Position numbers and translations under genes: made by a program | Shown: one piece after another, positions 31,529-50,688 of the stretch | Layout: the number at the start of each line of letters is the position of its first letter | Numbering within the stretch: position 1 is the stretch's first letter | Notes under the pieces: generated by a model | Databases searched by the model: none | What the model saw: only the letters and a program-made list of their open reading frames with translations | What the model was told of the DNA's origin: nothing | Source: Dehalococcoidia bacterium | Lineage (GTDB): Bacteria; Chloroflexota; Dehalococcoidia; DSTF01; WHTK01 | Length of the DNA: 64,000 bases | NCBI GenBank assembly: GCA_965225815.1 | Contig: CBDDBP010000006.1 | Coordinates: 314,066-378,065, forward strand | Reading direction: 5' to 3'

Positions 31529-31741
31529 ACACTTAGTTCCGTCGACGAGGGTCGCCGACAGTGGACTTCAGGTTCAGAACTCCTCCGTTTCGTCTCCGAT
31601 AGTCGGCATAAGTCGCTGTGATAAGCCGTCAGATACGTCGTCAAGGTTCTGGCGCTCTCCTTTTGGTATCCCACGGCGCGCCCCATCGCTCTGCCCCTAC
31701 TGCCGGCTTGGCCGCAAAGGGCCACGGATTCGGAAGCAGCG

Positions 31742-31769
31742 TTGACACCCCCCTCCTTGACGGCAGAAT
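31742..31769 (+). promoter_or_regulatory. repeated sigma70-like promoter motif, copy 1
   Basis: TTGACA-N16-CAGAAT, about 10 nt before ATG 31779; related copies at 32090, 33430, 34094, 35786, 61934. Confidence 0.55.
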
Positions 31770-31778
31770 CACGGCACC

Positions 31779-32093
31779 ATGGCGAGCGAGCACAGTCCTG
31801 ACAATCCCGACCTCGCGCCTCATCCAATCCGCGAGCAATCACCTCTGAGGCACCTTGAAGCGCCAGCCTTTCGAGACCGCGCGGGCGGTCGAAAGCCTGG
31901 GTTACTGCGCGCCTGGCTGCTAATGGCTGTGGCGCTCCTCGGACCGGGCCAAATTCTGGTTGGCTACATCGTCGTTTCATCGGGACTTACGCAACTTGGT
32001 TTATTTCTTCTCGTAAGCGGTTTGGGGATGATGGGGTTGGTCATTCTGGCATTGATTCTGGTCGGATTTCTGCTGGTCACTCCCGGCCTTTGA
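31779..32093 (+). CDS. small membrane protein (cassette-like)
   Basis: 2 TM; flanked on both sides by the promoter motif. Confidence 0.5.
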   Translation: MASEHSPDNPDLAPHPIREQSPLRHLEAPAFRDRAGGRKPGLLRAWLLMAVALLGPGQILVGYIVVSSGLTQLGLFLLVSGLGMMGLVILALILVGFLLVTPGL

Positions 32094-32237
32094 CACCCCC
32101 CTCACCAGCGACAGGATCCGTTGGTGGCCGTCCTCCTTTGCAATTTTCGATGAGATACGCGGCCAGGCGGGTTGCAGTCCTGGCTGCCTCACAGTAGCTG
32201 CTGGCCAGTCTGGGTGCCTAACAAGTAGGCTGCTGCT

Positions 32238-33167
32238 ATGCTTGGCGTCGCTCTAGCGCTGCTCTCCGCGTTGTCGTTCAGCCTCCAGAGCGTCATGGCT
32301 CGACGCGGCATGGCGCAGGCCTCCCCCACCGCCGGAGCATTCATCACGATCTGGCTCGGCGTGCCGATCTTCGCGATCGGAGCGCTCGCCAGCGGTCAGC
32401 TGTTCAATGTCGATGGGCTCTCGCTGAAGGCTTACGGATTCCTCGCCGCGGCGGGCGCCATCCACTTCGTCATCGGCCGCAGCTTCGGCTACCGAGCCAT
32501 CGCTGCCATTGGCGCCGCCCGCACCGGGCCGATTACGGCCCTCACGACGCCCTATAGCATTCTCATCGCGATCGTGTTCCTGGGCGAGAACATCTCCCCC
32601 CTTATGGCGATCGGCGTCCTCTGCATCCTTGCCGGTCCCGTGATTATGATTGAAAGACGGCAGCGCCAGCCGGTAAGCGTCGGGGCCGGCGCTCCAGCCG
32701 GCGAGGAAAAGGCCTTCGAGTTCAAGCAAGTGGAGGGCTACGCCTCCGCCGGCATATCGGCGATGGCATACGGCACCAGTCCCATCTTCATCCGCGCCGC
32801 TCTGGAGGGCGAGGCGGGGCTATCCCTCCTCGGCGGCCTAGTGTCCTACACGGCGGCGGCGCTCCTTATGCTGGTCGGCGTCGGCCTGACCAGCCGGCGT
32901 GATCTGGTTACGTCGCTGCGTCCGGAAACCGTCCGGGCATTCGTCGGGGCAGGCTTCCTCTCCGCGATCGCCCAGATGCTGCGGTTCGTCGCTCTCTCGG
33001 TCGCACCGGTCGCCATCGTGACCAGCCTCAACCGCGCCGGCAACGTCTTCACGCTCGGGTTGTCGTGGCTCTTCAATCGCCGCCTCGAGTTCATCACGCG
33101 TCGCGTCGTAGCCGGCGTGTTGCTTTCGGTTCTCGGCGCCATCGTCCTGGTGATCGGCAGTCAGTGA
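32238..33167 (+). CDS. EamA/DMT family transporter
   Basis: 10 TM, two EamA repeats, FLGE motif. Confidence 0.9.
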   Translation: MLGVALALLSALSFSLQSVMARRGMAQASPTAGAFITIWLGVPIFAIGALASGQLFNVDGLSLKAYGFLAAAGAIHFVIGRSFGYRAIAAIGAARTGPITALTTPYSILIAIVFLGENISPLMAIGVLCILAGPVIMIERRQRQPVSVGAGAPAGEEKAFEFKQVEGYASAGISAMAYGTSPIFIRAALEGEAGLSLLGGLVSYTAAALLMLVGVGLTSRRDLVTSLRPETVRAFVGAGFLSAIAQMLRFVALSVAPVAIVTSLNRAGNVFTLGLSWLFNRRLEFITRRVVAGVLLSVLGAIVLVIGSQ

Positions 33168-33309
33168 GCCGTGAGCCTGATCGCGCTAGGCGTCCAGCAA
33201 CTCTGACGCAGCCACCGGCGAGCAAGCGATGCGGTCTGCGCTGCCTCGGCGGGGTCGCCTCACTCTCAAGCAACAATCACCCTACTCTGGTCAACCGACT
33301 AGGACTAAC

Positions 33310-33402
33310 CACCTCGATTTCGCCATCGCTGAGTTCCAGGACATGAAAACGCAGCCGGCGCTGGAGCGGGCGCTTGGGCGTCGGGGGCTGCTGAAGGCGT
33401 AT
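33310..33402 (+). repeat. orphan gene-end repeat R1
   Basis: HLDFAIAEFQDMKTQPALERALGRRGLLKA. Confidence 0.92.
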
Positions 33403-33512
33403 CATTCTTAGTGCGTTGGTCACTGGCCTTTGAATTCTTGCCTCGCCAGCGACAGAATCACAGCGCTTAGCATCGTCTCATCCCGACTACTCGGAGGTAA
33501 GGAGCATCCTGT

Positions 33513-33893
33513 GTGGCGTCAGAGCCTGGGCAGCCAGTCACCTGCAGGCAGTGCAGCTCTGTCTTCTTCAGTAAAGAGGAACTCGATAGACACCTAGCCC
33601 AGACGGGCCACTCGTCTCAGTCTCACCTTCATCGCTATGGGCGCTATCTCCCTCACGCTACCGCGGGTCTTGGTTATCTTGTCGTCGGACTCCTTTCTGA
33701 TTTCGGAAGTGGAACTTTACTCATTGGCGGGCTAGGTGGTTACTTCACAGGCTGGCTCATTGCAAAGACGCTTGGCGTCCCAATGGGCAGGGGTGGTCGA
33801 GGCGGAGGGGGCTGGGGGGGAAGTGGAGGAGGCGATGGCGGCAATGGAGGCGGAGGTAATGGTGGTGGGGGCGGCGGCAACGGAGGCCCTTGA
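33513..33893 (+). CDS. C2H2 zinc-finger membrane protein with Gly-rich tail
   Basis: CRQC...F......RH...GH; 2 TM; GGG tail; AAGGAG RBS. Confidence 0.6.
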   Translation: MASEPGQPVTCRQCSSVFFSKEELDRHLAQTGHSSQSHLHRYGRYLPHATAGLGYLVVGLLSDFGSGTLLIGGLGGYFTGWLIAKTLGVPMGRGGRGGGGWGGSGGGDGGNGGGGNGGGGGGNGGP

Positions 33894-33948
33894 ACGCTTA
33901 ATCCTGGCTACGTTACGCAGGAACGTTGACGGTATGCAGCATCAAGCC

Positions 33949-34032
33949 TTCGCCATCGCCGAGTTCCAGGACATGAAGATGCGGCCCGCCCTGGAACGGG
34001 CGCTGGGGCGCAGAGGGCTGCTGAAGGCGTAG
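33949..34032 (+). repeat. orphan gene-end repeat R2
   Basis: FAIAEFQDMKMRPALERALGRRGLLKA*. Confidence 0.92.
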
Positions 34033-34165
34033 CCCGTGTTTCCTGGCTTACTCACTAACGGATACACAGACTGTGTCCCGCGTAAGCAGACCATTGACAG
34101 CCACCGACGGCAGAATCATTATCCCGCGAGAAGCACGATACCTGAGTAAGAAAGGGAGAAAATCA

Positions 34166-34579
34166 ATGGCAAGTCAGACCGATGTAGCAGGCAGAATAGC
34201 TCTTACGGTTCCTCAGTTCTCCTGGGATCATCCAATTCCTTTGGGTGTTCGGCTCGGCAATCTGGTTATCTCGTCCATAATTCCGCCGCGCGATCCGGAA
34301 ACCGGCGGCACACCATCGGAAGTTAAGCGACAGGTTGAGCTCGTCTTCCAACACATGAAGGGGCTGATCGAGGACGCCGGCGGCACAATCGATGACATCG
34401 CGCGCGTAACGTTCCTCGTCAGGAGCAAGGCAGAACATCGGCCACTCATCGACGAGGAGTGGAACGCAATGTTCTCGGCAGCTGGAGTTCAGCCGGCCCG
34501 GCTCGTCATTGAGGTTCCACCGCAGGGCGGACCATCCATCCAGTGCGAGTTCATCGGCATGCTTGGCTCGAAGCCCTAA
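34166..34579 (+). CDS. RidA/YjgF family protein
   Basis: HPIP...R.GNL, Q...VF..M..L...AG....DI, EW..MF....PAR. Confidence 0.85.
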   Translation: MASQTDVAGRIALTVPQFSWDHPIPLGVRLGNLVISSIIPPRDPETGGTPSEVKRQVELVFQHMKGLIEDAGGTIDDIARVTFLVRSKAEHRPLIDEEWNAMFSAAGVQPARLVIEVPPQGGPSIQCEFIGMLGSKP

Positions 34580-34661
34580 GACGTACCCCGCAGATCAGGG
34601 AGTATAAGAACGATAGCCGCCGTTGGGTCGTCAGGGGCGGCCATCGGCAGCCTTGGAGCGT

Positions 34662-34736
34662 CGCGACGCCGCTTCCGAGCACCTGGACTTCGCCGTCGCC
34701 GAGTTCCAGGACATGAAGATGGAGCGTGCGCTGGGA
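34662..34736 (+). repeat. orphan gene-end repeat R3 (internal deletion)
   Basis: RDAASEHLDFAVAEFQDMKM----ERALG. Confidence 0.85.
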
Positions 34737-34743
34737 TGGTGCT

Positions 34744-34974
34744 ATGAATACTGGACACTACCTCGAACCGATGATCGACGACTCGGAACAGGAGTGCGTG
34801 TTTTGCGGAGACCCGGCTGAGCATCGACTGCTCTGGACGGGGCCAGGATTCTTCGATACGTCTCAAGAAAGTGAGCATCAGGCAGGAACGCACTACCTCA
34901 GAGAGATAGACGAAAGCGTCTGCTCCGAGTGCGGGCAACTACCACTGGATGAGCTCCTGAATCGCCTCGCCTAG
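34744..34974 (+). CDS. small CxxC protein
   Basis: CVFC...CSEC; starts 8 nt after R3. Confidence 0.5.
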   Translation: MNTGHYLEPMIDDSEQECVFCGDPAEHRLLWTGPGFFDTSQESEHQAGTHYLREIDESVCSECGQLPLDELLNRLA

Positions 34975-35026
34975 AAGCTCAGATGAAGGCTCGCCAGAGA
35001 GGCAGCCTTCATGGGTATCGAGCAGC

Positions 35027-35116
35027 CTTGATTTCGCTATTACCGAGTTCCAGGACATGAAAATGCAGCCGGCGCTGGAGCGGGCGCTGGGCCGCAGGGG
35101 GCTGCTGAAGGCGTAG
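35027..35116 (+). repeat. orphan gene-end repeat R4
   Basis: LDFAITEFQDMKMQPALERALGRRGLLKA*. Confidence 0.92.
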
Positions 35117-35152
35117 GGGGTTGGCTCCATCGCCCGCACGGGCCTAGGGTTC

Positions 35153-35668
35153 TTGCGCGTGACTATTCGCTACTTAGCAATTGCCAGCTTTGGAACCGGG
35201 CTAACTGCGCTGGTCGGGTTTATGGTGGGACTGGCCGATCCTGCGTATTACGCTCCCGAAACCACCCTCGACTATGCGGCCGCCACACTCAACACCCTGG
35301 GGCCGGTCGCCGCCGCGGTAGCCCTGTTCATTTGGTGGAAGGTGGTGCAGGTCAGGAGGGGTGTTTTTCTTATCCTGATCGCGGCAGGAAGTGGCTTGGG
35401 GTATGGAGTTGGTAACTTCCTCGGAGATATTGCTGGCTGGGAGCCGGGAGATGACCTGTTCTTTTATGGAAGCGCTGCGTTCTTCTTTGCGTCGTTCGCC
35501 GCCGGCGTCGTGGTTCTTACGGTGCGAAGCAATTGGCGATGGTCTGGGCTATTTCTGCTGGCTGTTGCCGCGGGCGTCGGTGTCGACTCAGCCCTGGTCT
35601 CGGCCATTGGCTGGCTCGCTCTCGGGGTAGTCCTGTGGAAGGGCCTCCTCGGCCAAGCTGAGACGTAA
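35153..35668 (+). CDS. membrane protein (5-6 TM)
   Basis: hydrophobic ORF filling the R4-R5 interval. Confidence 0.65.
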   Translation: MRVTIRYLAIASFGTGLTALVGFMVGLADPAYYAPETTLDYAAATLNTLGPVAAAVALFIWWKVVQVRRGVFLILIAAGSGLGYGVGNFLGDIAGWEPGDDLFFYGSAAFFFASFAAGVVVLTVRSNWRWSGLFLLAVAAGVGVDSALVSAIGWLALGVVLWKGLLGQAET

Positions 35669-35714
35669 TTTCGGCGGCGGCTGAGTGCCTGGTTAAAGTT
35701 CAAGGTTGGCACCC

Positions 35715-35765
35715 CAGTCTGCATTAGAGCGAGCGCTGGGGCGTCGAGGACTGCTGAACGCGTAG
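35715..35765 (+). repeat. orphan gene-end repeat R5 (short)
   Basis: QSALERALGRRGLLNA*, followed by GGTCAC...TCTGGCCTTTGACA promoter motif. Confidence 0.85.
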
Positions 35766-35854
35766 GGTCACCTGCCGTCTGGCCTTTGACACCCTGACTC
35801 GCCAGCGACAGAATCACGACACCGTGACCAGTCACGGGATTGAGCGCCCCCGGC

Positions 35855-35943
35855 GAGCACCCAGCCTTCATCATTGTCGAGTCCCGAGATATGAAGAGGC
35901 AGCCTGGCCTGGAGCGGGCGCTTGGGCGGCGCGGGCGCGGTAG
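35855..35943 (+). repeat. orphan gene-end repeat R6 (degenerate)
   Basis: EHPAFIIVESRDMKRQPGLERALGRRG. Confidence 0.8.
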
Positions 35944-35965
35944 CGGGCCGTCGTTCTGTGCTCCC

Positions 35966-37633
35966 TCACCTCGCGGCGCTGAGCGATCTGTCGTCGTAGA
36001 CCACCACGCCTCCGACGAAGGTCATTGCTGCGGCGATGTCGTCGATTTCGTCCTCGGGTACGTTGAGGAAGTCCGCGTTGAGGATCACCAAATCGGCTAG
36101 CTTGCCGACTTCGACTGATCCGAGTAGGTCTTCTTCGAGCGCGCTCCAGGCGCTCCCCATGGTGTACAGACGCAGGGCCTCGAGGCGTGTAATCTGCTGA
36201 CCATCGTTGACCAACGAGCCCGAAATCGTCCGACCCGTGACCATGTAGTGGATGCCCTGCCACGGATCGAGCGGTCCGATCGCTCGTCCGTCAGAACCCG
36301 CGCCAGCCGTCACCCCGGCATCGATGATGTCCCGAAAGGGTGCGCCCCCGCCAAACGAACCGTAGTAGGCGAAGTTGTGCACGCCGACACCGGCGCCCAG
36401 CTCGGCCAGACGGGCCAGGTGCTCGGGCGAGATCTGATTGGCGTGGTCCAACGACCAGTGGAGGTCGGCCAGTGGCGTCGTGGCATCGACCTCTTCAAAC
36501 GCGCTGATATGGGCGGCGTTCTCTGCGGATCGCAGCGAGTGCTGCGCCAGCGGCCAGCCTAGTGCCGCGATTTCGGACCATCCCGCCGCGAAGTCGGCGG
36601 AGGTATCGCCGAAGCCTCCGACCGAGAACTCACCGACGCCGACCACGCGCAGCATGTCGTCGCCATCGCCTGCACGCCCGAGAGCATCTTCAACCGCCTG
36701 AATCGTCGTCTCGATCCCGCCGAGGCCGCCGAAGCGGAGACGCATGCGCACGGTGAGCTGCTCGCTCTCCCAGAGTCGGTAAGCCTGTTCCCCGTTGCCG
36801 GTGCTCGTCATGTCGATCACCGTCGTGATACCCATCGAATTGGCCCAGGTCATGTACTCCTTGGCGGCCCGCTCGGCGTCAGCGTCCGTCTGCTCGCCTT
36901 GCAAGATCTGGACGGCGCGCGGCGTCCTCTGCTGGTCGATCGGGATGCCGCCATCGGCGGCAATCGTGCCGACGCCGTTTGCCTCTAGATGCGCTTTGGC
37001 GAGCGAATTCACAGCTGCCGGTCCGCTGAAGGAGGCCTGCAGGTAGACCGGATGGTTCGGCGCAACGGCGTCGAGCTCGGCCAGGGTTGGCAACGGGAAC
37101 GCCCTGGTGGGATAGCCCCCGATGACGGTGATGTATTCGCCCGCCGGGACGGTTTGAACCCGCTCGCGAAGCCCGTCGAGAGCGTCTTGGGTCGAACGAG
37201 CCTCCTCGATCTGCGACAAGAAGTGTCCGGGCCGGACCCAGTCTCGCGTGAAATGCACATGGGAATCGATGAAGCCGGGAACGACAGTGCGGCCAGCGAG
37301 ATCGACCACGCAAGCGCCCTCTGGGATCGTGATTGAATCGCCGACGGCGCTGATGTGTGAGCCTTCGAGCAAGACCGACGAAGCTTGTGAGTCTGTCGCG
37401 TCGACCGTGAGAATGACTCCGTTGATCAGGGCGATCACGGTCGAATCGGCAAGGCAACCCGACGGCGGTTGGTTGCTAGCTTCGCTAGCCGTCCCGGTGC
37501 TGGGCGTTTCGCTTAGCCCCTCAGATTGGGCCCCGGTGGTGCCTTTTTGGTTGGGCGTGTCATCTGAGCAGCCCGCCAGGAGGATGACGCCAGCGACGAC
37601 GATGGCGAGAGCTTGCCACCGCGTTATCTTCAT
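35966..37633 (-). CDS. amidohydrolase-3 (YtcJ-like) lipoprotein
   Basis: lipobox LAGC; PGFIDSHVH; GSD; G...VGKLADLVIL. Confidence 0.9.
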   Translation of the reverse strand: MKITRWQALAIVVAGVILLAGCSDDTPNQKGTTGAQSEGLSETPSTGTASEASNQPPSGCLADSTVIALINGVILTVDATDSQASSVLLEGSHISAVGDSITIPEGACVVDLAGRTVVPGFIDSHVHFTRDWVRPGHFLSQIEEARSTQDALDGLRERVQTVPAGEYITVIGGYPTRAFPLPTLAELDAVAPNHPVYLQASFSGPAAVNSLAKAHLEANGVGTIAADGGIPIDQQRTPRAVQILQGEQTDADAERAAKEYMTWANSMGITTVIDMTSTGNGEQAYRLWESEQLTVRMRLRFGGLGGIETTIQAVEDALGRAGDGDDMLRVVGVGEFSVGGFGDTSADFAAGWSEIAALGWPLAQHSLRSAENAAHISAFEEVDATTPLADLHWSLDHANQISPEHLARLAELGAGVGVHNFAYYGSFGGGAPFRDIIDAGVTAGAGSDGRAIGPLDPWQGIHYMVTGRTISGSLVNDGQQITRLEALRLYTMGSAWSALEEDLLGSVEVGKLADLVILNADFLNVPEDEIDDIAAAMTFVGGVVVYDDRSLSAAR

Positions 37634-38091
37634 CGGTCCTCCTCAGCCAGCAGGAGGCTGGCCCTCATTCCATCGAGCCGACCCACTCCGTGACGTGCCC
37701 GAAACCTCATCCTCTCGTTTAACTGCTAGCCGCAGCGTCGCACCAACCATACGGGCACGCCGGTTAGTCCGACAGCACCAAGCCCTGTGCCGCGTAGGAG
37801 ATGCCGGCGGCTGAGCACTCGCTGCTTCCACCTGTGCTGCAAGCTGGCCCTTCCTGGCTACCGGCCGTGTTCGACTCGGACCAGATTATTGATCACGACA
37901 TTGCTATGCGGCGTTCCAGTGCGACTCGCGTTCCCTTTAGATAATCTCTCTTCGGCCAGCGGAGGTTACGGCCAGAAACCAGAATCCTGACTAAATTTCT
38001 CTACGGGCTAAACGAATGTCCAGTGCGGCAACAGGCAGCTCAGCCAGGATACCAAGGAGCATCACCGGAACATGGTTTCCTTTCAGGACAC

Positions 38092-38182
38092 GACGCCGCT
38101 ATCGAGCTACTCGAGTTTGCAATGGCGAGTCCAAGACATCAAGATGCGGCCGACGCTGGGGCGTCGGGGGCTGCTGAAGGCG
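38092..38182 (+). repeat. orphan gene-end repeat R7 (degenerate)
   Basis: DAAIELLEFAM..DIKMRP..LGRRGLLKA with indels. Confidence 0.8.
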
Positions 38183-38183
38183 C

Positions 38184-38211
38184 CGTCACACTATCGCCCG
38201 ATCGTGTAACC
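38184..38211 (+). other. 28-bp 11-6-11 palindromic site S1
   Basis: CGTCACACTAT-CGCCCG-ATCGTGTAACC. Confidence 0.75.
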
Positions 38212-38223
38212 ATCTGGCCTTCA

Positions 38224-38301
38224 GTCGCTGACTGCAAGGACATGAAGATGCAGCCTGCGCTGGAGCGAGCGCTGGGACGTAGGGAGCTGCTGAAGGCGTA
38301 G
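38224..38301 (+). repeat. orphan gene-end repeat R8
   Basis: VADCKDMKMQPALERALGRRELLKA*. Confidence 0.9.
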
Positions 38302-38455
38302 AGAACCGCAACTCGCCGTCGATGAAGGCGTAAAACAAAGCCCGACATGCTGACATGGTTACCTACCACCGTCAGAGGAAGAGGCTGGAGCCGGTTTTCA
38401 GACGTGGCATCCCTGACACTACGGATCTCGATCCTCGCGGTGTCGCCGACGGCGA

Positions 38456-39837
38456 TCAGCCAGAGTCGTCCGCCACAGGCTGTAGACGCCGCGGCGGTCT
38501 GGCGAAGATGACCACCACCGCCGCGATGCCTGCGGTCGCGGCGAAGGCGAGGAAGGCTGAATCGTAGCTGCCAGCGGCATCATAGACACGGGCCGCGAAC
38601 TGCGGACCGATGGCCGTCGCCACCGCGATCAGCGGCAGGGCGACGCCTCGCACCTTGCCGATGTTGACCCGCCCGTAGTACGTCGCCCAGATCAGTTCCT
38701 GCAGGGGAACGCGACCGCCGAAGCCGAGACCCCAGCCCACAAGAAAAAGATAGAGCACCAGTGAGCTGTCAGTGTTGAGGGAAAGGACGATGCCAGCCGT
38801 ACAGACCGACATCAGACCGAAGCTGAAAGAGGCGCAGAAACGCGGTGCGAAGCGCTGCATCATCGCTCCCCAAATCGGGCGTGATAGCGCTGTCGCAAGC
38901 AAAGCGGTGCTGAATCTCGCAGCTCCGGCCTGAGAAGAGAAGCCGGCGTCTTGAACGTTGCGATGAAGTGGAGGAAGAAGGCGCCCGTGCTGAAGCTCGC
39001 CAGAGCAAACGAGACGATAAGCAGCCAGAACGTCTTTGTGTGAATCGCCTCTGCTCTGGTCCACTGCTCCTCAGTAGCGGCCGTAACGACGAGTCTCCTG
39101 CCCGGTGTGGCTTGGATGTCCGCTTCGTCGGTGTCGCCGTCTGGCATGAGGCCGTAGTCCTCGGGACGTCGTCGCATGACTAGCGCTGCCGGGATCGCCA
39201 GGACCAGGAGGCCCAACCCGAGAATCATCCACGAGGTCTCCCAGCCAAAGGAGTCCACAAGCGCGGCTACAATGCGCGGTGTCACAGCTCCGGAGATCGA
39301 CAGGCCGGTCGTGGAGATCGTGATAGCCCAGGCTCGTCGGCGCACGAACCACTTGGAAACCGTCGTGTTGGCGACCAGGTTGCCCAGCATCATCGCACCC
39401 AGAGCGATACCGACGCCCCGTAGCAGCAAGAACTGCCAGATGCTGTCCACCTGGCTAAGGCTGACAACGCTGGCCGACATCACGACGGCCCCAACCAGCA
39501 TGAAAGGACGAGGGCCCTTGGTGTCGAGATGGCTGCCGACCAGGAAACCGCCGCCGCTCATCACCAGCGTCCCCAGGGTCTGGGCCCATGTGAAGTCAGT
39601 TCGGGACCAGCCAAGGTCAGTCGTCATCGGCTCCAGGAAGACGGCCTGAGCGTGGCTCTGTATCGCTACGGCCGTCATCTGGGCGCAGAGAGCCGCCACG
39701 ACTATGTACCAGCCGTAGTAGACCTTACGCGGACGTGCGGCTTGGAGGCGACCAATCAGGCGATTGCGAGCGCGAGGTGGCTCCGCCACGGTCTGACGCA
39801 CGTCAGCGCTTTCCGGCCCTGAGCCAGGTAAGCTCAT
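38456..39837 (-). pseudogene. MFS transporter (OFA-like), frameshifted near 38950
   Basis: YYGWYIV, PMTTDLGWSRT, KWFVRRR; C-terminus YYGR...GKVRG in another frame. Confidence 0.8.
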
Positions 39838-39997
39838 CTTGCGGCAATACTAAAGGCTGAGCGCTTGCTCCGTTGATGGTGCCATATTGACCGAGGACCT
39901 TTTAACAGTTTGCGCCGCCATGTGTAGCGGTTTGGAACGTCAATGACACTCCAGTGGCCGTCGGGCCTGACCCAGAGCTTGCAAGCATTACGATCTG

Positions 39998-40078
39998 ACC
40001 ATCGCCGAGTTCCAGGACATGAAGATGCAGCCTGCGCTGGAGGGGGCGCTGGGACGCAGAGGGCTGCTGAAGGCGTAG
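39998..40078 (+). repeat. orphan gene-end repeat R9
   Basis: TIAEFQDMKMQPALEGALGRRGLLKA*. Confidence 0.92.
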
Positions 40079-40105
40079 GTCACACTATCGCTTGATCGTG
40101 TGACC
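40078..40105 (+). other. 28-bp palindromic site S2, abutting the R9 stop codon
   Basis: GGTCACACTAT-CGCTTG-ATCGTGTGACC. Confidence 0.8.
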
Positions 40106-40119
40106 ACCTAATCCCCGCA

Positions 40120-40193
40120 CTCGCCGAGATCCGGGGTATGAACATGCAGCCTGCGCTGGAGCGGGCACGCGGACCGGGGCGCTGAAGGCGTAG
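40120..40193 (+). repeat. orphan gene-end repeat R10 (degenerate)
   Basis: LAEIRGMNMQPALERA...GCTGAAGGCGTAG. Confidence 0.8.
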
Positions 40194-40681: not shown

Positions 40682-40789
40682 AGTGCTCCTCTCCAACTGT
40701 TGTTTGGGGCAAAGCACAGCGTGACGATCTTGGCTTACAGGCCGCTTACGAAGATTACGCTTTGGAGGCATTCCCAGAATCCACGAAGT

Positions 40790-40846
40790 GCGGGCGCTAG
40801 GACGCCGGGGGGCTGGAGGTGTAGGTCACTATTTGGTCATAGTGTC
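40790..40846 (+). repeat. short repeat R11 plus site S3
   Basis: GCGGGCGCTAGGACGCCGGGGGGCTGGAGGTGTAG then GTCACTAT-TTGGTC-ATAGTGTC. Confidence 0.7.
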
Positions 40847-41751: not shown

Positions 41752-41804
41752 CGTTTGACAGCACTCTCTGCTTGCTGTGTCTGCATTCAGGGCGTATCGT
41801 GAGC

Positions 41805-41895
41805 TTGTCGTTCGGGGTGGTCCCGGCAATTTCGGGGCCTGAGAGCACACCCGCGGACCTGATCCGGGTAATGCCGGCGTAGGGAAGGCGATGAC
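41805..41895 (+). ncRNA. TPP riboswitch
   Basis: GGGGTG...CTGAGA...ACCC...ACCTGATCCGGGTAATGCCGGCGTAGGGA upstream of thi genes. Confidence 0.95.
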
Positions 41896-41981
41896 ATTCG
41901 CAGCCCAGCTGTTTCCAGCAACGTCACCGTCTGATTAGGTTTCCGTGACTTGGCCTACCGACCCGGCGGCGGAGGGAACTT

Positions 41982-42641
41982 CTGGTACACGCCAAACTCG
42001 GGCGGCTCCACGTAATTACCGACGAGGTCTTGCAGACCCGCTACTCCCACGCGGAGATCGCGACATTTGCCGTTCGCGGAGGCGCCGACACCGTGCAGTT
42101 CCGAGAGAAGCGAACGCGTCTGACGCGCGAGCTGATCGACGACGCCGGAGCCGTCGCACGAACGTGTCATGCGACCGGCGCCTCCTGCATCATCGATGAC
42201 CGCGTCGACGTGGCTGCGGCCGTGGGTGCCAGCGGTGTGCACTTGGGTCGGGACGATTTGCCGGTGAAGGTTGCACGCCAATTCTTGGGCGCCGGCATCC
42301 TGATCGGCGGCACGGCAAACAGTATCGAAGAGGCACGCCGCGTCTGGCAGCAGCCCATTGACTACCTGGGCGTGGGACCCGTTTACGGCACGCAGTCCAA
42401 GGCGAACCCGGCGCCCGTGCTTGGGATCGAGCAGCTTGAGGGGATAGCCAGGGAATGCCCCGTGCCCGTGATCGCGATTGGCAGCATCACGGCCGACCGT
42501 GTCGGTGAGGTGCTGGACACAGGCGCATTCGGGATGGCTGTCCTGTCCGCGATCACCTGCGCCGGCGACCCCGAGGCCGCGACCCGCGGCTTCGCCGATG
42601 TGATCAGGGGCTGGCTCGCGGCCCGAGAGGTCGGCAGATAG
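41982..42641 (+). CDS. thiE: thiamine-phosphate synthase (possible CTG start)
   Basis: GRLHVITD, QFREK, IIDDRVD, GVHLG.DD, DYLGVGPVY.T.SK. Confidence 0.9.
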   Translation: MVHAKLGRLHVITDEVLQTRYSHAEIATFAVRGGADTVQFREKRTRLTRELIDDAGAVARTCHATGASCIIDDRVDVAAAVGASGVHLGRDDLPVKVARQFLGAGILIGGTANSIEEARRVWQQPIDYLGVGPVYGTQSKANPAPVLGIEQLEGIARECPVPVIAIGSITADRVGEVLDTGAFGMAVLSAITCAGDPEAATRGFADVIRGWLAAREVGR

Positions 42642-43771
42642 TGAAGCGGAAGCTGGCAGCAGACGTCGCTGTGATCGGTGGAGGCATCATCGGGCTCGCC
42701 TGCGCCAACGAGCTCGTCACACGAGGCAAGCGTGTCGTCGTCCTGGAGCGCGACCATGCTGGCGCTGGCGCCGGTCATGTGGCTGCGGGGATGCTCGCGC
42801 CGGCGAGCGAATCGGAGGCGGAGAACGAGGCGTTCGTCGAGCTGGCGCTCGCGAGCTGCGCCATGTACGAGGAATGGGTTGCCGATGTAGAAACCGCGTC
42901 CGGCTTGAGCTGCGGCTATCGCAAAGAGGGGACTCTGCTCCTGGCGTTGCATCATGACCATGAAGAAGAGCTGCAGCGACTGATGAGCATCCAACGCAGG
43001 CTGAATCTGGCGTCAGAGACCGTGACCCGGGCAGAGGTGCTCGAAAAGGAGCCCTTCGTTTCGCCGAGGGTGGTGAGCGGCCTCTCGGTGACGAATGACA
43101 GGCAGGTCGACCCGAGGCGGCTAACGCGGGCGCTGAGCGCGGCCTTGTCTGCCAGAGGCGGAACGATGGTTCAAGGGCAGGCAGCGGAGCCGGTAATCGA
43201 CGGCGGTCACGCGGCTGGCCTCAGGACAGAAAGCCTGGAGATCAACGCCGAGGTCGTGCTGATCGCGGGTGGTGTTTGGAGCGCCGCGGCTTGGCCGGAG
43301 GCCGCAGGGCCACTGCCACTCAGGCCGGTCAAGGGACAGATCATACGCTTGCGGGGCGCTCCTCTGATCCGGCATGTCGTTCGGACACCTGACGTCTACC
43401 TGATCCCGCGCGAGGACGGCGAGCTGGTGGTCGGTGCGACAAGCGAGGAGCAAGGCTTCGACACAACCGTGACAACCTGGGCCGTCATGGACCTGCTGCG
43501 TGAAGCTTGGCGCGTCCTGCCGGGCATCGCGGAGCTGGAAGTGGCGGAGCTGTCCGCCGGCCTACGGCCTGCGCTGCGCGACCACATGCCGGCGATCGGC
43601 GCAACCTCGCTCGAAGGGCTGTTCCTTGCGACGGGCCACTACCGTCACGGCATCATGCTTGCGCCGATAACGGCGAAACTCATCGCAGATGCGATCGACG
43701 GTGTGAGCTCGGAGATGTTGCGCGCCTTCGACCCGAAGCGGCTCGCCGAAGCCAGCGTGGGCCACGGCTGA
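42641..43771 (+). CDS. thiO: glycine oxidase
   Basis: GGGIIG, AAGMLAP, PVKGQ, GHYRHGIMLAP. Confidence 0.93.
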   Translation: MKRKLAADVAVIGGGIIGLACANELVTRGKRVVVLERDHAGAGAGHVAAGMLAPASESEAENEAFVELALASCAMYEEWVADVETASGLSCGYRKEGTLLLALHHDHEEELQRLMSIQRRLNLASETVTRAEVLEKEPFVSPRVVSGLSVTNDRQVDPRRLTRALSAALSARGGTMVQGQAAEPVIDGGHAAGLRTESLEINAEVVLIAGGVWSAAAWPEAAGPLPLRPVKGQIIRLRGAPLIRHVVRTPDVYLIPREDGELVVGATSEEQGFDTTVTTWAVMDLLREAWRVLPGIAELEVAELSAGLRPALRDHMPAIGATSLEGLFLATGHYRHGIMLAPITAKLIADAIDGVSSEMLRAFDPKRLAEASVGHG

Positions 43772-43974
43772 TGCACGCGACGGTGAACGGAGAGGAAATC
43801 GTGCTGCAGGGCCCGAGGACCATCGAGGCGCTGGTCGCGGAGATTACGGGTTCCTCGGAGAAGCGCGGTGTCGCGGTGGCGCTAAACGGTGAAATCTTAC
43901 GTCGCGACGACTGGTCTCAGGTCGTGGCTGAGGGGGACGAGATCGAGATCGTGAAAGCGGTCCAGGGAGGCTGA
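43771..43974 (+). CDS. thiS: sulfur carrier protein
   Basis: VNGE...VAVALNGE...EIVKAVQGG with C-terminal GG. Confidence 0.93.
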   Translation: MHATVNGEEIVLQGPRTIEALVAEITGSSEKRGVAVALNGEILRRDDWSQVVAEGDEIEIVKAVQGG

Positions 43975-45400
<1,426 letters not shown>

Positions 45401-45401
<1 letters not shown>

Positions 45402-46222
45402 TGGCCACCTACACGCGTGCCCTGACGATCGCGGGTTCAGACTCGGGAGGCGGCGCGGGCATCCAGGCCGACCTCAAGACGTTCTCAGCACTGGGCTGCT
45501 ATGGCATGTCGGTGATCACAGCGATTACGGCACAGAACACGCGTGAGGTCACGGCGGTGCACGCGGTTCCCGTGGACGTTGTTACCGCTCAACTCGACGC
45601 TGTACTCTCTGACATCGGCGCGGACGCCATCAAGATCGGTATGCTGTACAACGCCGAGACGACGGCCGCCGTGGCGGAGGTCCTGGGTCAGCGGCGGGTC
45701 GCCCCCATCGTCCTGGACCCGGTGATGGTGGCGAAGAGTGGCGATAGTCTGCTCACCGAACCGGCGATCCAAAGCCTGCGGACGCGGATGTTCCCTCTCG
45801 CCGACCTGATTACGCCGAACCTGCCCGAAGCGGAGGCGCTGCTCGAGCGGAGGGTTAGTGACCGTGATGACATGGAGGAGGCGGCGGCTGACCTGCTGGC
45901 AATGGGGCCGACGGCCGTACTGCTGAAGGGAGGACATCTCGAGAGCGAGGTGGTCAGCGACATCCTGGTGCAACGCCGTCACGACGGCAGTGTCGAGAGC
46001 CGCTGGCTTGAGAGTCGGCGGGTTGAAACGCAGAACACCCACGGCACGGGCTGTACGCTCTCATCAGCGATCGCGGCTCACCTGGCGCGTGGCGCCTCGA
46101 TGGAGAATGCGGTAGCGGCGGCCCGACAGTACGTCCAGGACGCAATCGAAGCGGGGGCTGAATACGAACTGGGGCATGGGCACGGGCCGGTGCATCATTT
46201 CCATGCCGCCTGGCGAGAGTAG
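45401..46222 (+). CDS. thiD: HMP/HMP-P kinase
   Basis: TIAGSDSGGGAGIQADLK, DPVM, TPN..EA, HGTGCT. Confidence 0.97.
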
Positions 46223-46225
46223 ACG

Positions 46226-46900
46226 ATGAGATTCACAGACGAACTGTGGCAGAGCACCCTTCCCGTCTACGAGGAGATCTTGCGCCTGCCGTTCATCGAT
46301 GAGCTGACTGATGGCTCGTTATCGCGGGAGCGGTTCGTCTTCTATATGAAGCAGGACGCCTTGTACCTGCAGGACTTCGCGCGCTCGCTCGCCATTACCG
46401 GCTCGCGCCTGCCCGAGCCGGAAGCCGCGCAATCGTTCATGGGCTTCGCGCACGGGGTCTTTGCCGTCGAGCGCCAACTTCACGAGACCTACTTCCGTGA
46501 CTTCGGCGTAGAGCTGGACACAGATAGGGCGCCAGCCTGCTTTGCGTACACGCAGTTTCTCCTGGCGACGGCGACCACCGCGACCCACCAAGAAGCCGCT
46601 GCGGCACTGCTGCCGTGTTTCTGGGTATACCGGGAGGTGGGCAACGAGATCGTCCACCGCGCGCAGGAAAACGTAGCGTCCAACCCGTACTCGCGCTGGA
46701 TCGAGACGTACTCCGGCGAGGGGTATGACGAGAGCGTGACGCGCGCCATCGAGATCGTCGAAGCGCAGGGGCAGTCGACCTCTAAGTCGGGACGCAAAGC
46801 TATGCAGCGAGCATTCCAGAAGTCAACGCGGCTGGAGTGGATGTTCTGGGACAGCGCCTACCGCCTGGAACAGTGGCCACCCGGACCAGGTCAGAGTTAG
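46226..46900 (+). CDS. tenA: thiaminase II / aminopyrimidine aminohydrolase
   Basis: QDALYL, LLPCFWVY, Y..WI.TY, LEWMFW. Confidence 0.92.
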   Translation: MRFTDELWQSTLPVYEEILRLPFIDELTDGSLSRERFVFYMKQDALYLQDFARSLAITGSRLPEPEAAQSFMGFAHGVFAVERQLHETYFRDFGVELDTDRAPACFAYTQFLLATATTATHQEAAAALLPCFWVYREVGNEIVHRAQENVASNPYSRWIETYSGEGYDESVTRAIEIVEAQGQSTSKSGRKAMQRAFQKSTRLEWMFWDSAYRLEQWPPGPGQS

Positions 46901-48239: not shown

Positions 48240-48640
48240 GGAACTTCGCAACAGACTGAGGAAGTTGGGCGTGGCCTACGTTGAAACCGGCATGTCAGAT
48301 GCCCGGTACAGACATCGAAAGGCAGAGTTAGAAGATCAGATCAAGGCAGCCAGTGCGGTCGTGCCGCCTTCTTATGAAGAGGCAGCGGCTCTACTCTTGG
48401 ATTTGGAAGCACTCTGGAAAGAGGCTACGCCGGAAGAACGTCGAAAGCTCATCAGCCCGCTGATCGAACGCGTCTACGTGGACATGGAGCTAAAGCTTGT
48501 GGGGGCGATCACGCCAACGCCGGCATTCAGGGCTCTACTGCGGTGTGCGGTACAAAGAGCGGCTCCAACATCATCCTGGTCTCTCAAGAGGACATGCAAA
48601 GGCCGGTGGTTTCTTGGTGGAGACGGGGGAGAATCGAACT
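48240..48640 (+). pseudogene. large serine recombinase C-terminal fragment ending in att-like scar 2 (48611-48640)
   Basis: LW..ATPEERR.L...LIERVYVD; ends in WWRRGRIEL after a frameshift; tmRNA-like 3' end on the minus strand. Confidence 0.75.
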
Positions 48641-49368
48641 CGGCGGTAGAACTTCCACAGACGTCCGCAGATGACCTTCATCGAGTGCCGTAGATTCAAT
48701 ATGTTCACTCATCAGTCCGCTAACGGTTGCAGAAGGTCACCAAAATCCGCCGGTGCTGTTGTCGGAACTGTTGTCAATTCAGGGATCGATAGTCTCTGAG
48801 AAGCGAAGAACTTAGGTGCAATTGGAGCGATTCTAACCATGCCACGGAGGCAGCGTGCGGGCCGGCCCTGCATCTGGCGCTGGCAAGTGAAGTCAGAAGT
48901 GTAGGAGAAGGGTGGGAAGGAGACTGCGGTGAGACTCTTGGGCCAGCCAAGTGAGCATGACTCTCGACCTCTACAGCCATGTCACGCCGATTATGCAGAG
49001 GGCCGCGGCCGACGCGATGGAGGAAGTCCTGACCTCAGGCTGACCCGAAACTCCGAATCCTCATCTTGGGACCGACGGATTAAAAGTAGGACGGTGGTGA
49101 GAGGCCCCAGAAGGCCCCGTCTTGAATCTGAGTTACTCCCGTTTCGAGCATCTTTCTCGGCGAGTTCGTTGGTCTGCCAGCCGATTAACTCTCTGGTAAT
49201 TCCTTGGAATTCGCAAGAATTCGGATTAACTGGAATTAATTCAAAGACACGCAATTTTCTCACTGGATCCGGTGGGGCGGGTCTTCGACAGAGCCAAAGC
49301 GAGTCGAACGACAAGCGATTCAAACGGCGAGCCTTTACGGGTGATTCGTCACGACGCTGTGACAGAGA

Positions 49369-49437
49369 CACTGGAACAGAGCGCAGCCCACTGGAACAGA
49401 GCGCAGCCCCGTTGTCAGTTGCGACAACGGGGCTGCG
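49369..49437. terminator. 15-bp-stem hairpin preceded by a 20-bp tandem duplication
   Basis: CACTGGAACAGAGCGCAGCC twice; CGCAGCCCCGTTGTC-AGTTGC-GACAACGGGGCTGCG just past the amidohydrolase stop. Confidence 0.65.
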
Positions 49438-49443
49438 TCCTTC

Positions 49444-50466
49444 TCAGACCTGTGCGAGCTGAGGAATGACTTTTGCAGGGTTGTGATGGAAGATCTTGAT
49501 CTTCTCTTCTTCACTGAGCCAATCAAACGCGGCGATAACAGGAACAAGATCATCTCCTGGAACACCGTTTTCTGGGCGTGGGTGTCGACTAGATCCTGGA
49601 GCCTCGACACCAAAGCACATCTGGTCGACTCCTTTTTGTCGAATCGCTGCAGTGAGGTAGTTCACCTCAGGTGCATTGGTATCGAAGAAGAGGTTCTTCG
49701 TCGTATCCCGAGACGGTAGGTGTGGATCACCCTGGACAAAGCGGTCGAGTGCTCCACCGCAGTGACAGATGATGAACTTGATATTTGGAAAGCGATCGAA
49801 GACGTCTCCGTGACCGAGCAGCTGCGTAGCGAAAAACTGCTCGACGTAAAATGCCATCTGGTAGTTCTGAGGAATAATTCTCAGCCGACGGTCCAAGACG
49901 TTCGATGCATGGACGATGATCGGGATGTTGCGTCCTTCGCACTCTTCATAGAGCGGATACCAGTAGTCTTCGTGCATTCCTGGCGTTTCACGCTTGCCAC
50001 CTGGGTCGGGGTTGACATAGGTCGCGACGAAGCCGTACTCGTCAATGCATCGACGAAGTTCAGGCAGCACGTTTGAGGTGTCTTTGTACTCTGAGACGAA
50101 TGGTAGCTGCGATGCGCCAAGGAATCGATCAGGGTAGTAGGTGCACTGCTGGTAGATCATCTCGTTGACCTCTCGGCACCAACTCTCCAGCAGATGATCT
50201 TGCATCCAAGCCATGTGGTTAAGTGGGCGAGGGCCAATGACTTGGACATCAATGTTGCGGTCGTCGATGTACTTCACATGGTTTGCAGCGGCCCAGCGAA
50301 AGTCCTCATCAGTGATTCGGAAATTTGCGGGCAGTCCCTTCCCTGCCTTTAATACCGTGCCAGTTCTGGCAGTGTTTGATCCAAGTAATTGCACAAGCGT
50401 TGCGTTCGCCCCAGTTGGCACGCTGACGTGTGCGTGCACGTCAAGAACTTTGATCCCGTTGTACAT
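49444..50466 (-). CDS. amidohydrolase-2 family protein (LigJ/ACMSD-like)
   Basis: DVHAH; YWYPLYE...P.IVH; CHCGG. Confidence 0.88.
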   Translation of the reverse strand: MYNGIKVLDVHAHVSVPTGANATLVQLLGSNTARTGTVLKAGKGLPANFRITDEDFRWAAANHVKYIDDRNIDVQVIGPRPLNHMAWMQDHLLESWCREVNEMIYQQCTYYPDRFLGASQLPFVSEYKDTSNVLPELRRCIDEYGFVATYVNPDPGGKRETPGMHEDYWYPLYEECEGRNIPIIVHASNVLDRRLRIIPQNYQMAFYVEQFFATQLLGHGDVFDRFPNIKFIICHCGGALDRFVQGDPHLPSRDTTKNLFFDTNAPEVNYLTAAIRQKGVDQMCFGVEAPGSSRHPRPENGVPGDDLVPVIAAFDWLSEEEKIKIFHHNPAKVIPQLAQV

Positions 50467-50519
50467 ACAGCCCCCTTAGTGGTGATTCCTATCCCCGACA
50501 TTCCCCATATCAACTGGCT

Positions 50520-50688
50520 TGGCGGCATCGGGTATGCCTCCCGCCACCTGAAAAGTACGTCCTCCCTGGCAAACGGTCAAGACGCCGAAGAACTGATCGC
50601 GCTGGCGGATTCGATCTTCGACTACCTGTACGTCATCCCCGCCGAAGTTGCCCGCAGAAGGGCGCGGCAGGCCGGTAGCACCCCGTAG
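50520..50688 (+). pseudogene. DUF4145-like C-terminal fragment
   Basis: DAEELIALADSIFDYLYVIPA pattern. Confidence 0.4.

Follow-up and report, generated by a model that had tools for sequence, protein, structure and literature searches.

The DNA analysed here is a stretch of 64,000 nucleotides (nt) from a Dehalococcoidia bacterium (positions 314,066 to 378,065 of contig CBDDBP010000006.1; the whole stretch is referred to as the window), in which a repeat of about 95 nt occurs in an array from position 33309 onwards. This repeat is the detached 3' end, consisting of the last 30–47 codons plus the stop, of a gene encoding a Ser/Thr kinase together with an AAA_16 (STAND-type) ATPase and a TPR region, and is from now on called the tail. 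The reading we favour, with a probability of about 0.6, is that the repeats are tails detached from kinase genes, that they carry a silent-site signal inherited from those genes, that they form the borders of cassettes and that their arrays arose by Campbell-type accretion. The synonymous bias among the tail copies is far beyond chance; the old, shared variation is codon-structured while the recent, private variation is not.

Identity and distribution of the repeat

A search with an nhmmer profile built from five window copies revealed ten clear copies of the unit in the window (R1 to R10, E 1e-26 to 6e-7) and an eleventh, degenerate one at position 40789 with an E value of only 3.5. A repeat-finding pass returned seven to eight copies of a 51–95-nt unit between positions 33308 and 40198, all on the + strand. 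In the genome surveyed (3.26 Mb in 8 contigs, 92.8% complete) 87 copies were found at E<1e-3, with 17 on contig C1, 2 on C2, 3 on C5, 16 on C6, 36 on C7 (the contig that holds the window) and 13 on C8. Most of them are grouped in arrays, of which there are 10 or more, and the strand is the same throughout each array. The repeat noted in a preliminary description of this DNA is real, but the array holds more copies than R1–R8 and the family is genome-wide, not local. When sampling the class, the tail was present in 12 of 151 genomes, and at least three relatives of the same genus contain 7–30 or more copies. In a genome from another family of the class (G149, many contigs) 23 matches to a 48-residue tail query were obtained, 11 of them in open frames of fewer than 250 codons, several at contig ends and others closing frames of 460–650 codons, so that the tail may in that lineage also end shorter proteins.

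One tail copy closes an open frame of 1287 codons (C7:86778-82915) situated about 140 nt downstream of a tRNA-Ala, and the product contains the domains Pkinase (residues 89–340), AAA_16 (376–552) and TPR_12 (1192–1256). Many detached copies continue upstream into homology with the kinase gene, reading AELLLDHYPDEHDAAIEHLDF or ..AELLLDHYPDEHDAAIEHLDFAIAEF.., and since the extent of this homology varies while the 3' limit is a common stop codon, the tails are 5'-truncated gene ends of varying length. The family consensus C-terminus is ..EFQDMKMQPALERALGRRGLLKA followed by the stop. All nine aligned outgroup gene ends, from full-length or long homologues in records titled Dehalococcoidia, Dehalococcoidales, Chloroflexia, Anaerolineales and Phycisphaerales, read ..EF(Q/R)DMKMQP(S/W)LERALR(H/Q)K(E/D)ILKA and then the stop. 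Seven intact or long paralogues (open frames of 985–1376 codons) were identified in four congeners; they are 33–41% identical over the last 461 residues, in the TPR region, and five of the seven end in a tail that is 79–86% identical in DNA to the window copy R9. The tail is thus by far the best-conserved part of a fast-diverging family of kinase paralogues. In PADLOC the kinase domain alone matched kinase-type defence families and, as nothing but this domain was matched, the search gives no evidence of a defence role.

Codon structure of the tails and the source of their diversity

To describe the variation, ratios of non-synonymous to synonymous change (dN/dS) were calculated as pooled Nei-Gojobori pairwise ratios, which are not phylogenetically independent and are given as descriptive values with no P value, the other two reading frames serving as control. 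The alignments derive from the profile built on window copies, and the congener is represented in part, by 35 copies found in about 100 kb of loci. The values obtained were:

All 87 copies: gene frame 0.245; other frames 1.06 and 1.49
10 window copies: gene frame 0.25; other frames 1.29 and 1.82
77 copies outside the window: gene frame 0.25; other frames 1.56 and 0.98
35 copies from a congener: gene frame 0.25; other frames 1.58 and 0.76
9 true gene ends of other taxa: gene frame 0.06; other frames 3.12 and 1.68

On average the copies diverge from the consensus by 0.10 at the first, 0.07 at the second and 0.19 at the third codon position, and the codon differences from the consensus comprise 344 synonymous and 283 non-synonymous ones. 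The four-fold sites of Pro, Ala, Arg and Gly show all four bases, and the first-position changes in Leu and Arg codons are the synonymous ones. The observation in the preliminary description that the copies differ mostly at synonymous positions is borne out by this codon alignment, the gene-frame dN/dS being 0.25 and not about 1. The codon strings it had quoted for the peptide RALGRRG can all be read in the sequence for R1 (cgg gcg ctt ggg cgt cgg ggg, at about 33369–33389), R2 (ending cgc aga ggg), R4 (ending ggc cgc agg ggg) and R5 (cga gcg ctg ggg cgt cga gga), and the variation of Pro between ccg, ccc and cct is present as well; in R8 the codons cga gcg ctg gga cgt agg gag are there but the label RALGRRG does not hold, the last codon being Glu and not Gly. 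The variable columns are third codon positions with T, G or C as consensus and with all four bases represented, not template adenines, and on this base pattern a diversity-generating retroelement was rejected.

When variant codons (counted as single-base variants) were sorted by the number of copies sharing them, those present in at least three copies comprised 42 synonymous and 24 non-synonymous ones (64% synonymous, where 25% would be expected under neutrality), and those private to one copy were 6 synonymous to 66 non-synonymous (8%). In the other two frames the synonymous share showed no trend from shared to singleton variants. The singleton figure is depressed because most of the possible synonymous variants are already common, and it is therefore read as absence of protection, not as an excess of damage.

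These counts bear on the proposal, raised as one of two options in the preliminary description, that each copy is a small gene for a peptide of 19 amino acids (aa), MKMQPALERALGRRGLLKA, or for a somewhat longer one, maintained by selection in place. An ATG with an open frame to the stop is retained in 37 of the 87 copies, and for its 19 codons dN/dS comes to 0.21 across the genome and to 0.19 in the window, as a selected peptide would have it. The bias, however, extends to the 11 codons before the ATG (0.40 genome-wide, 0.21 in the window), and the frame and sequence of the peptide are those of the 1287-codon gene. The remaining copies are open but lack the ATG (20), are frameshifted or contain a stop (26) or are too short to score (4), the ATG being absent in 26 of the 83 scorable copies, so that an intact start-to-stop frame together with purifying selection in place is not what most copies show. 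The 26 frame-broken copies, which are unable to make the peptide, have a dN/dS of 0.20, as compared to 0.25 in the 57 frame-intact ones, and the copy-specific variants counted above are unprotected. On reading the sequence, the sole purine-rich stretch before the ATG was AGGA, at a distance of 1 nt. A selected 19-aa peptide is not supported by these results and is considered very improbable.

The other option, that the copies came from different functional alleles or paralogues, was addressed with a maximum-likelihood tree of copies with at least 75 aligned bases (47 from this genome, 17 from a congener and 9 outgroup gene ends), in which the 95-nt unit gives little resolution. The genome label changes 15 times on the tree, as compared to 15.2 ± 1.3 times with shuffled labels (584 of 1000 shuffles at or below the observed value), and the outgroup gene ends split off in one step. 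For 32.3 of the 51 copies with at least 70 aligned bases the nearest neighbour belongs to the other genome, where 14.6 are expected under random mixing. The mean distance of the copies is 0.161 to the resident allele, i.e. the full-length gene of this genome, and 0.143 to the allele of the congener, and the former is not half the mean pairwise distance of 0.20. The copies consequently form no star around the genome's own allele. As they cluster neither by genome nor around the resident allele, the tails are concluded to derive from many functional alleles or paralogues and to have decayed thereafter, an origin that is further supported by the unit being the true 3' end of a diverse Pkinase/AAA_16/TPR family.

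The same gene-like pattern might be kept up by ongoing gene conversion from working kinase genes in the same cell, i.e. by concerted evolution and not by origin. The tail is indeed far more conserved among paralogues than the rest of the protein (the 79–86% nucleotide as against 33–41% amino-acid identity given above), and the nearly invariant block of 26 nt at profile columns 24–49, next to which the third position of Pro at column 50 is the exception, could seed conversion. Against this, the copies are closer to the congener's allele than to the resident one, their synonymous divergence is high (proportion of synonymous differences, pS, 0.40) where frequent conversion would erase it, and the sole full-length gene in the genome has a frameshifted tail which just 5 to 10 other copies resemble. 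Conversion of this kind is therefore regarded as unlikely to be what keeps the tails gene-like.

Arrays, cargo and kinase 5' modules

In the window the tails alternate with other genes (the cargo) and with copies of the promoter and start region of the kinase gene (the kinase 5' module). The features are, in order:

31741..31826 (C7:345806-345891), + strand: kinase 5' module, copy 1, promoter TTGACA-N17-CAGAAT plus GTG start region (nhmmer E 6e-12)
32083..32167 (C7:346148-346232), + strand: kinase 5' module, copy 2, preceding the EamA cargo gene (E 6e-6; repeat family D6)
32238..33167, + strand: EamA-family transporter cargo (PF00892, E 2e-20)
33309..33402, + strand: tail R1, HLDFAIAEFQDMKTQPALERALGRRGLLKA, with TAT in place of the stop (nhmmer E 1e-26)
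33422..33490, + strand: kinase 5' module, copy 3, 21 nt past R1 (E 1e-7)
33513..33893, + strand: small Gly-rich open reading frame (ORF) of no family, with a sub-threshold zinc-finger match only
33939..34032, + strand: tail R2, full, TAG end
34073..34579, + strand: RidA/L-PSP cargo (gene 34166-34579) with its own promoter (PF01042)
34679..34741, + strand: tail R3, with internal in-frame deletion; the next cassette cuts in at about column 70
34726..34974, + strand: small Cys-rich cargo ORF of no family
35025..35116, + strand: tail R4, full (nhmmer E 1e-26)
35153..35668, + strand: membrane-like cargo ORF of 171 aa, no family
35714..35765, + strand: tail R5, 5'-truncated, profile columns 44-95
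35778..35848, + strand: kinase 5' module, copy 4, 13 nt past R5 and directly followed by R6 (E 5e-15)
35857..35935, + strand: tail R6, 3'-truncated, profile columns 2-80
35966..37633, - strand: amidohydrolase cargo, opposite to the tails (PF07969, E 1e-59)
38109..38182, + strand: tail R7, with internal in-frame deletion and no stop
38187..38208: palindrome CACACTATCG..CGATCGTGTA between R7 and R8
38210..38301, + strand: tail R8 (nhmmer E 8e-24)
38456..39837, - strand: MFS transporter cargo, two ORFs in the window (PF07690 on both pieces)
39985..40078, + strand: tail R9, full
40081..40102: palindrome between R9 and R10
40105..40193, + strand: tail R10, frame broken
40789..40823, + strand: possible last remnant of a tail, degenerate and weak (E 3.5; family D5), with a palindrome-like stretch behind it

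The array begins earlier than R1 if the modules at 31741 and 32083 are counted, and at 35778-35935 a promoter module runs straight into tail R6, giving a kinase unit without its interior. Contigs from four sequencing runs (four studies) tile the array at 99% identity or more, ending at repeats. The contigs of all four runs carry an extra A after position 38958, so that the MFS gene is probably no pseudogene but was split through an error in the assembly. Several tail copies lack exactly 12 or 15 nt between two GCGCTGG repeats at profile columns 51–68 (MKMQPALGRRGLLKA forms), and these losses are recurrent in-frame deletions within the tail, caused by slippage or recombination.

A palindrome of 22–26 nt (CACACTATCG..CGATCGTGTG) was found exactly between the stop codon of a tail and the next promoter module or a tail starting at column 1. 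A regular expression for it gave 19 sites in the genome, some 12–14 of which were judged real by eye, and 7 of the 19 abut a tail; as a universal cassette border the palindrome (GTCACACTATCG..CGATCGTGTGAC) was accordingly rejected. The 95-nt unit itself has no stable hairpin and, the palindrome being separate from it, repeats of the repetitive extragenic palindrome (REP), bacterial interspersed mosaic element (BIME) or miniature inverted-repeat transposable element (MITE) type were rejected too. A unit of 120 nt, consisting of the palindrome and a tail from column 1, was found in two genomes, at 6 or more sites, as though it had spread by itself.

Throughout the genome, adjacent co-oriented tails delimit 54 intervals of up to 6 kb, with a median of 1.2 kb. 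The cargo of another array includes two Rieske oxygenases, an HtrA-type protease, a peroxiredoxin-like protein, two MFS transporters, a hybrid sensor kinase/LuxR regulator, a DUF3179 protein and a DsbD-like protein. When comparing with congeners, three adjacent cassettes behind a congener kinase gene mapped to three different arrays here (C7:158.8k at 87%, C8:316.4k at 98% and C6:448.4k at 85%). The RidA block at 34079-34732 shares 85% identity with a locus of the congener where another neighbour lies on its left, and of the EamA region only 32200-33171 matches the congener (88%), whose copy sits in a context that is found elsewhere in this genome. A paralogue of the MFS cargo, 76% identical, is located in another array of the same genome. 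RidA orthologues on metagenome contigs keep the promoter without a tail; as orthologues outside arrays share this promoter, its interpretation as a kinase 5' module was rejected. As a pattern, then, the tails border mostly single-gene accessory modules that occur in different arrays and orders in a related species. The suggestion in the preliminary description that the copies were imported together with their cargo is only indirectly supported: cassettes common to the congener in shuffled contexts speak for it, but the same cargo also occurs with tails of different length or form.

The whole 60-kb neighbourhood of the window array is without synteny to relatives. Near the array only a 5-kb gene block at 41800-46878 is conserved (71–72%, three congeners), and as it is matched in these congeners on the other strand or at other places of the genome, it does not provide synteny. 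A segment of 2.3 kb at 48240-50581 shares 99% identity with congener G015 and, over 1.6 kb, about 98% with G004, with surroundings that are about 70% identical or unmatched; by this comparison it looks like a recently exchanged mobile segment.

The kinase 5' module (TTGACA-N17-CAGAAT...GTGAC(C/G)AG, profile of 13 copies) is present in about 28 copies in the genome, including the four in the window, and matches the stretch directly upstream of the full-length kinase gene. For 6 of the 28 modules a tail on the same strand ends less than 400 nt upstream, four of these gaps being 13–22 nt. In a distant lineage, one metagenome-assembled genome carries a full kinase gene followed by 5' module, 114-aa ORF and tail, and a near relative has only the 5' module, ORF and tail in the same place. 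Three of the arrays have at their head, on the strand of the tails, a kinase gene that breaks off early (after 922, about 509 and about 200 codons), and in a congener a kinase gene is followed by three tails downstream. The repeats are thus direct copies of the 3' end of a kinase gene, co-oriented with it in the three arrays that it heads, as expected of accretion at a gene's 3' end.

Such truncated heads, together with the repeated promoter and start modules, could also mean that no tail-specific process exists and that the arrays are groups of once tandem kinase paralogues worn down by random deletions, interspersed with ordinary island genes. Two paralogues located 2.7 kb apart in the distant lineage, and a whole kinase gene lost or gained between two 5'-module copies when locus L022 is compared with L029, also fit this. 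Random decay should leave internal pieces, but a tblastn search with the whole protein returned the gene itself, three 5' pieces, one 120-codon 3' piece and no internal-only piece, as against 87 tails of at most 50 codons. Tails also outnumber 5' modules by about 3 to 1 (87 against 28), the orientation within arrays is strictly uniform, the order of cassettes is scrambled between congeners, and the 120-nt palindrome unit recurs as described. Decay without a process acting on the tail is accordingly thought improbable.

Possible mechanism and relation to known systems

The silent differences arose while the tails belonged to different working alleles and paralogues of a genus-wide pool. The C-terminal tail is under strong purifying selection in the working genes and decays neutrally once detached. 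In the accretion model that we favour, a circular module with one tail would recombine with the tail of the resident kinase gene or of an earlier module, each Campbell-type insertion adding one cargo and one tail in direct orientation. The incoming tail would become the real end of the gene and be exposed to selection, by which the pool would stay codon-structured, and later deletions would hollow out the kinase genes that head the arrays. Campbell-type insertion is favoured because only the tail is multiplied, the orientation of arrays is uniform, some arrays are headed by a kinase gene and the tail is the best-conserved DNA of the family.

Several results weigh against this model. The array of the window has no kinase gene at its head, and the resident full-length gene lacks one base near its end and finishes ..ERHWDVEGC before the stop, although this 1-nt frameshift may not be real, as an assembly error was found elsewhere in the genome (in the MFS gene). 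Among single-gene-like intervals in the genome, only 25 of 36 have cargo along the direction of the tails and 11 have it reversed. Units composed of 5' module, cargo and tail occur in this genome as well as in the distant lineage, and insertion at the tail alone does not explain them. No fixed repeat boundary that would mark a crossover point was found: on the 5' side the tails reach from 0 to 140 or more nt beyond the unit, in a continuous range, cargo homology starts 10–97 nt past the preceding stop, and in one cassette common to both genomes, with tails on both sides, a 48-nt indel where the cargo meets the downstream tail sets the two versions of that tail apart. Neither a circular form nor an excision junction was seen in the run contigs, which break at repeats; the joints are short-sided and probably come from other copies. 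No dedicated recombinase could be tied to the arrays among those examined in the genome.

The recombinases encoded near arrays are either unrelated to tail content or tied to tRNA-SeC, and no site-specific integrase was found that co-occurs with the repeats. A family of 298-aa tyrosine recombinases (XerC/D-like) has 10 matches in this genome, several of them broken, among others at C7:381659-382554, 3.6 kb past the end of the window, and at C1:850-870k; G015 has 16 matches and G013 has 8, broken ones included. Across 18 genomes its copy number is unrelated to tail content, with eight copies in a congener that has a single tail match and none in a congener with seven tails, and the family, which behaves like an element of the insertion-sequence type, was rejected as cassette integrase. 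A large serine recombinase of 502 aa (C7:579806-581314), with a stretch of lower GC upstream, stops about 550 nt short of where the array at C7:581-601k has its first tail; it has no intact orthologue in the array-rich congener and only a partial 90% copy in G015, and was likewise rejected. The block of tRNA-SeC and tyrosine integrase at C5:168000-169940 is 96.7% identical to congener locus L021:2385-4339, nearly base for base up to the tRNA 3' end, past which a kinase tail follows in this genome and a kinase promoter module, some 190 nt on, in the congener. The integrases beside tails at these two loci flank tRNA-SeC, with the identity between the genomes stopping at the tRNA 3' end; they probably serve that site and were rejected as well.

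Variable tail limits, imprecise cargo borders and repeated 5' modules would fit homologous or illegitimate recombination better. The crossover is given slightly less than even odds of being made by a site-specific recombinase acting in trans; homologous recombination with the tail as portable homology has a lesser yet appreciable chance, and something else is rather unlikely.

The tails could further be taken for attC sites, making the arrays those of a chromosomal integron or clusters of attC sites lacking integron-integrases (CALINs) moved by an integron integrase. In favour of this, the arrays are co-oriented and mostly have one gene per interval, at a median spacing of 1.2 kb, and their cassettes are shuffled between genomes. 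When searching for the integron integrase with TIGR02249, however, none of 21 matches passed the cut-off (the best had 81 against 265 bits), a result that does not prove absence in a genome that is 92.8% complete. The consensus of 23 full copies gave folds of only -4.0 kcal/mol on the top and -4.5 kcal/mol on the bottom strand (alifold), i.e. no hairpin, with a mean fold z of -0.24 over 20 copies, and no R''/R' boxes (RYYYAAC/GTTRRRY) were seen on reading the consensus. The variation of the tails is codon-structured, and several cassettes have their own promoter. With no IntI over the cut-off and no folding unit the integron interpretation was rejected, and we give it hardly any credence.

Among the closest known systems are the ssrA islands of Dehalococcoides, which lie in tandem downstream of a conserved gene and are each bounded by a direct repeat of the 3' end of that gene (McMurdie et al. 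2011, PMC3146451). According to that account, 16 islands carry a serine-recombinase integration module (DsiB/DsiA) and some units lack integration genes and are read as cis-mobilizable elements built by accretion; the target is a single-copy tmRNA, the repeat is a fixed one of 20 bp and all repeats lie within 100 kb of ssrA. The bacterial class, the 3'-end repeats and the accessory cargo (strain-specific in the ssrA islands) are shared with the tails, which differ in being protein-coding repeats of 95–140 nt with variable 5' limits, in 87 copies and 10 or more arrays, in bordering modules of mostly one gene, and in having no dedicated recombinase among those found. The tycheposons and tRNA-seeded islands of Prochlorococcus are similarly described as built from elements that integrate successively at the same site, pushing older ones inward and leaving partial target copies and degenerate elements dispersed over a flexible island (Hackl et al., bioRxiv 10.1101/2020.12.28.424599). 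As presented there, they use a tRNA or tmRNA target and their own integrases, with 1–2 elements per genome, whereas the target-like repeat here is the tail of a protein gene that accompanies dozens of integrase-less one-gene units. Integrons and CALINs, in the description of Cury et al. 2016 (PMC4889954), share co-oriented single-gene cassettes each followed by a repeat, reshuffling and arrays away from an integrase; they differ from the tail arrays, which have no IntI, no folded attC, codon-structured repeats, many promoters and the 11 of 36 reversed cargoes. Integron-like elements inserting in rulB (PMC4542609) share a protein-coding gene as hotspot for cargo-carrying site-specific elements, but these are large, have their own recombinases and lie in a plasmid or chromosomal gene, and the available part of that source describes no arrays of gene tails.

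In open-access papers and preprints no description of such a system for this kinase gene family was found. Arrays of single-gene cassettes are textbook knowledge only for integrons, and the present genome has, in 3.26 Mb, 87 borders made of the tail of a protein gene, with neither attC structure nor integrase found. Tentatively, and with more doubt than confidence, these may represent a cassette-exchange platform with a coding sequence as its site, in which one-gene modules would use the selected C-terminal tail of a STAND-kinase family for attachment or homology, with no integron integrase or attC. Such a platform may possibly work with no dedicated recombinase and may have originated repeatedly in Dehalococcoidia. 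Selection on the protein would then keep the site conserved across paralogues of 33–41% identity, and each insertion would give the gene a fresh tail.

For the kinase family itself, the unusual constraint on the last 30 residues (dN/dS 0.06) points to an unrecognised function of the tail. The silent-site signature offers a general test by which scars copied from working genes can be told from drifting repeats and from hidden small genes, which separate cleanly here. If the tails are recombination sites, they would constitute a second way to build cassette arrays, one that may be widespread in uncultured Chloroflexota.

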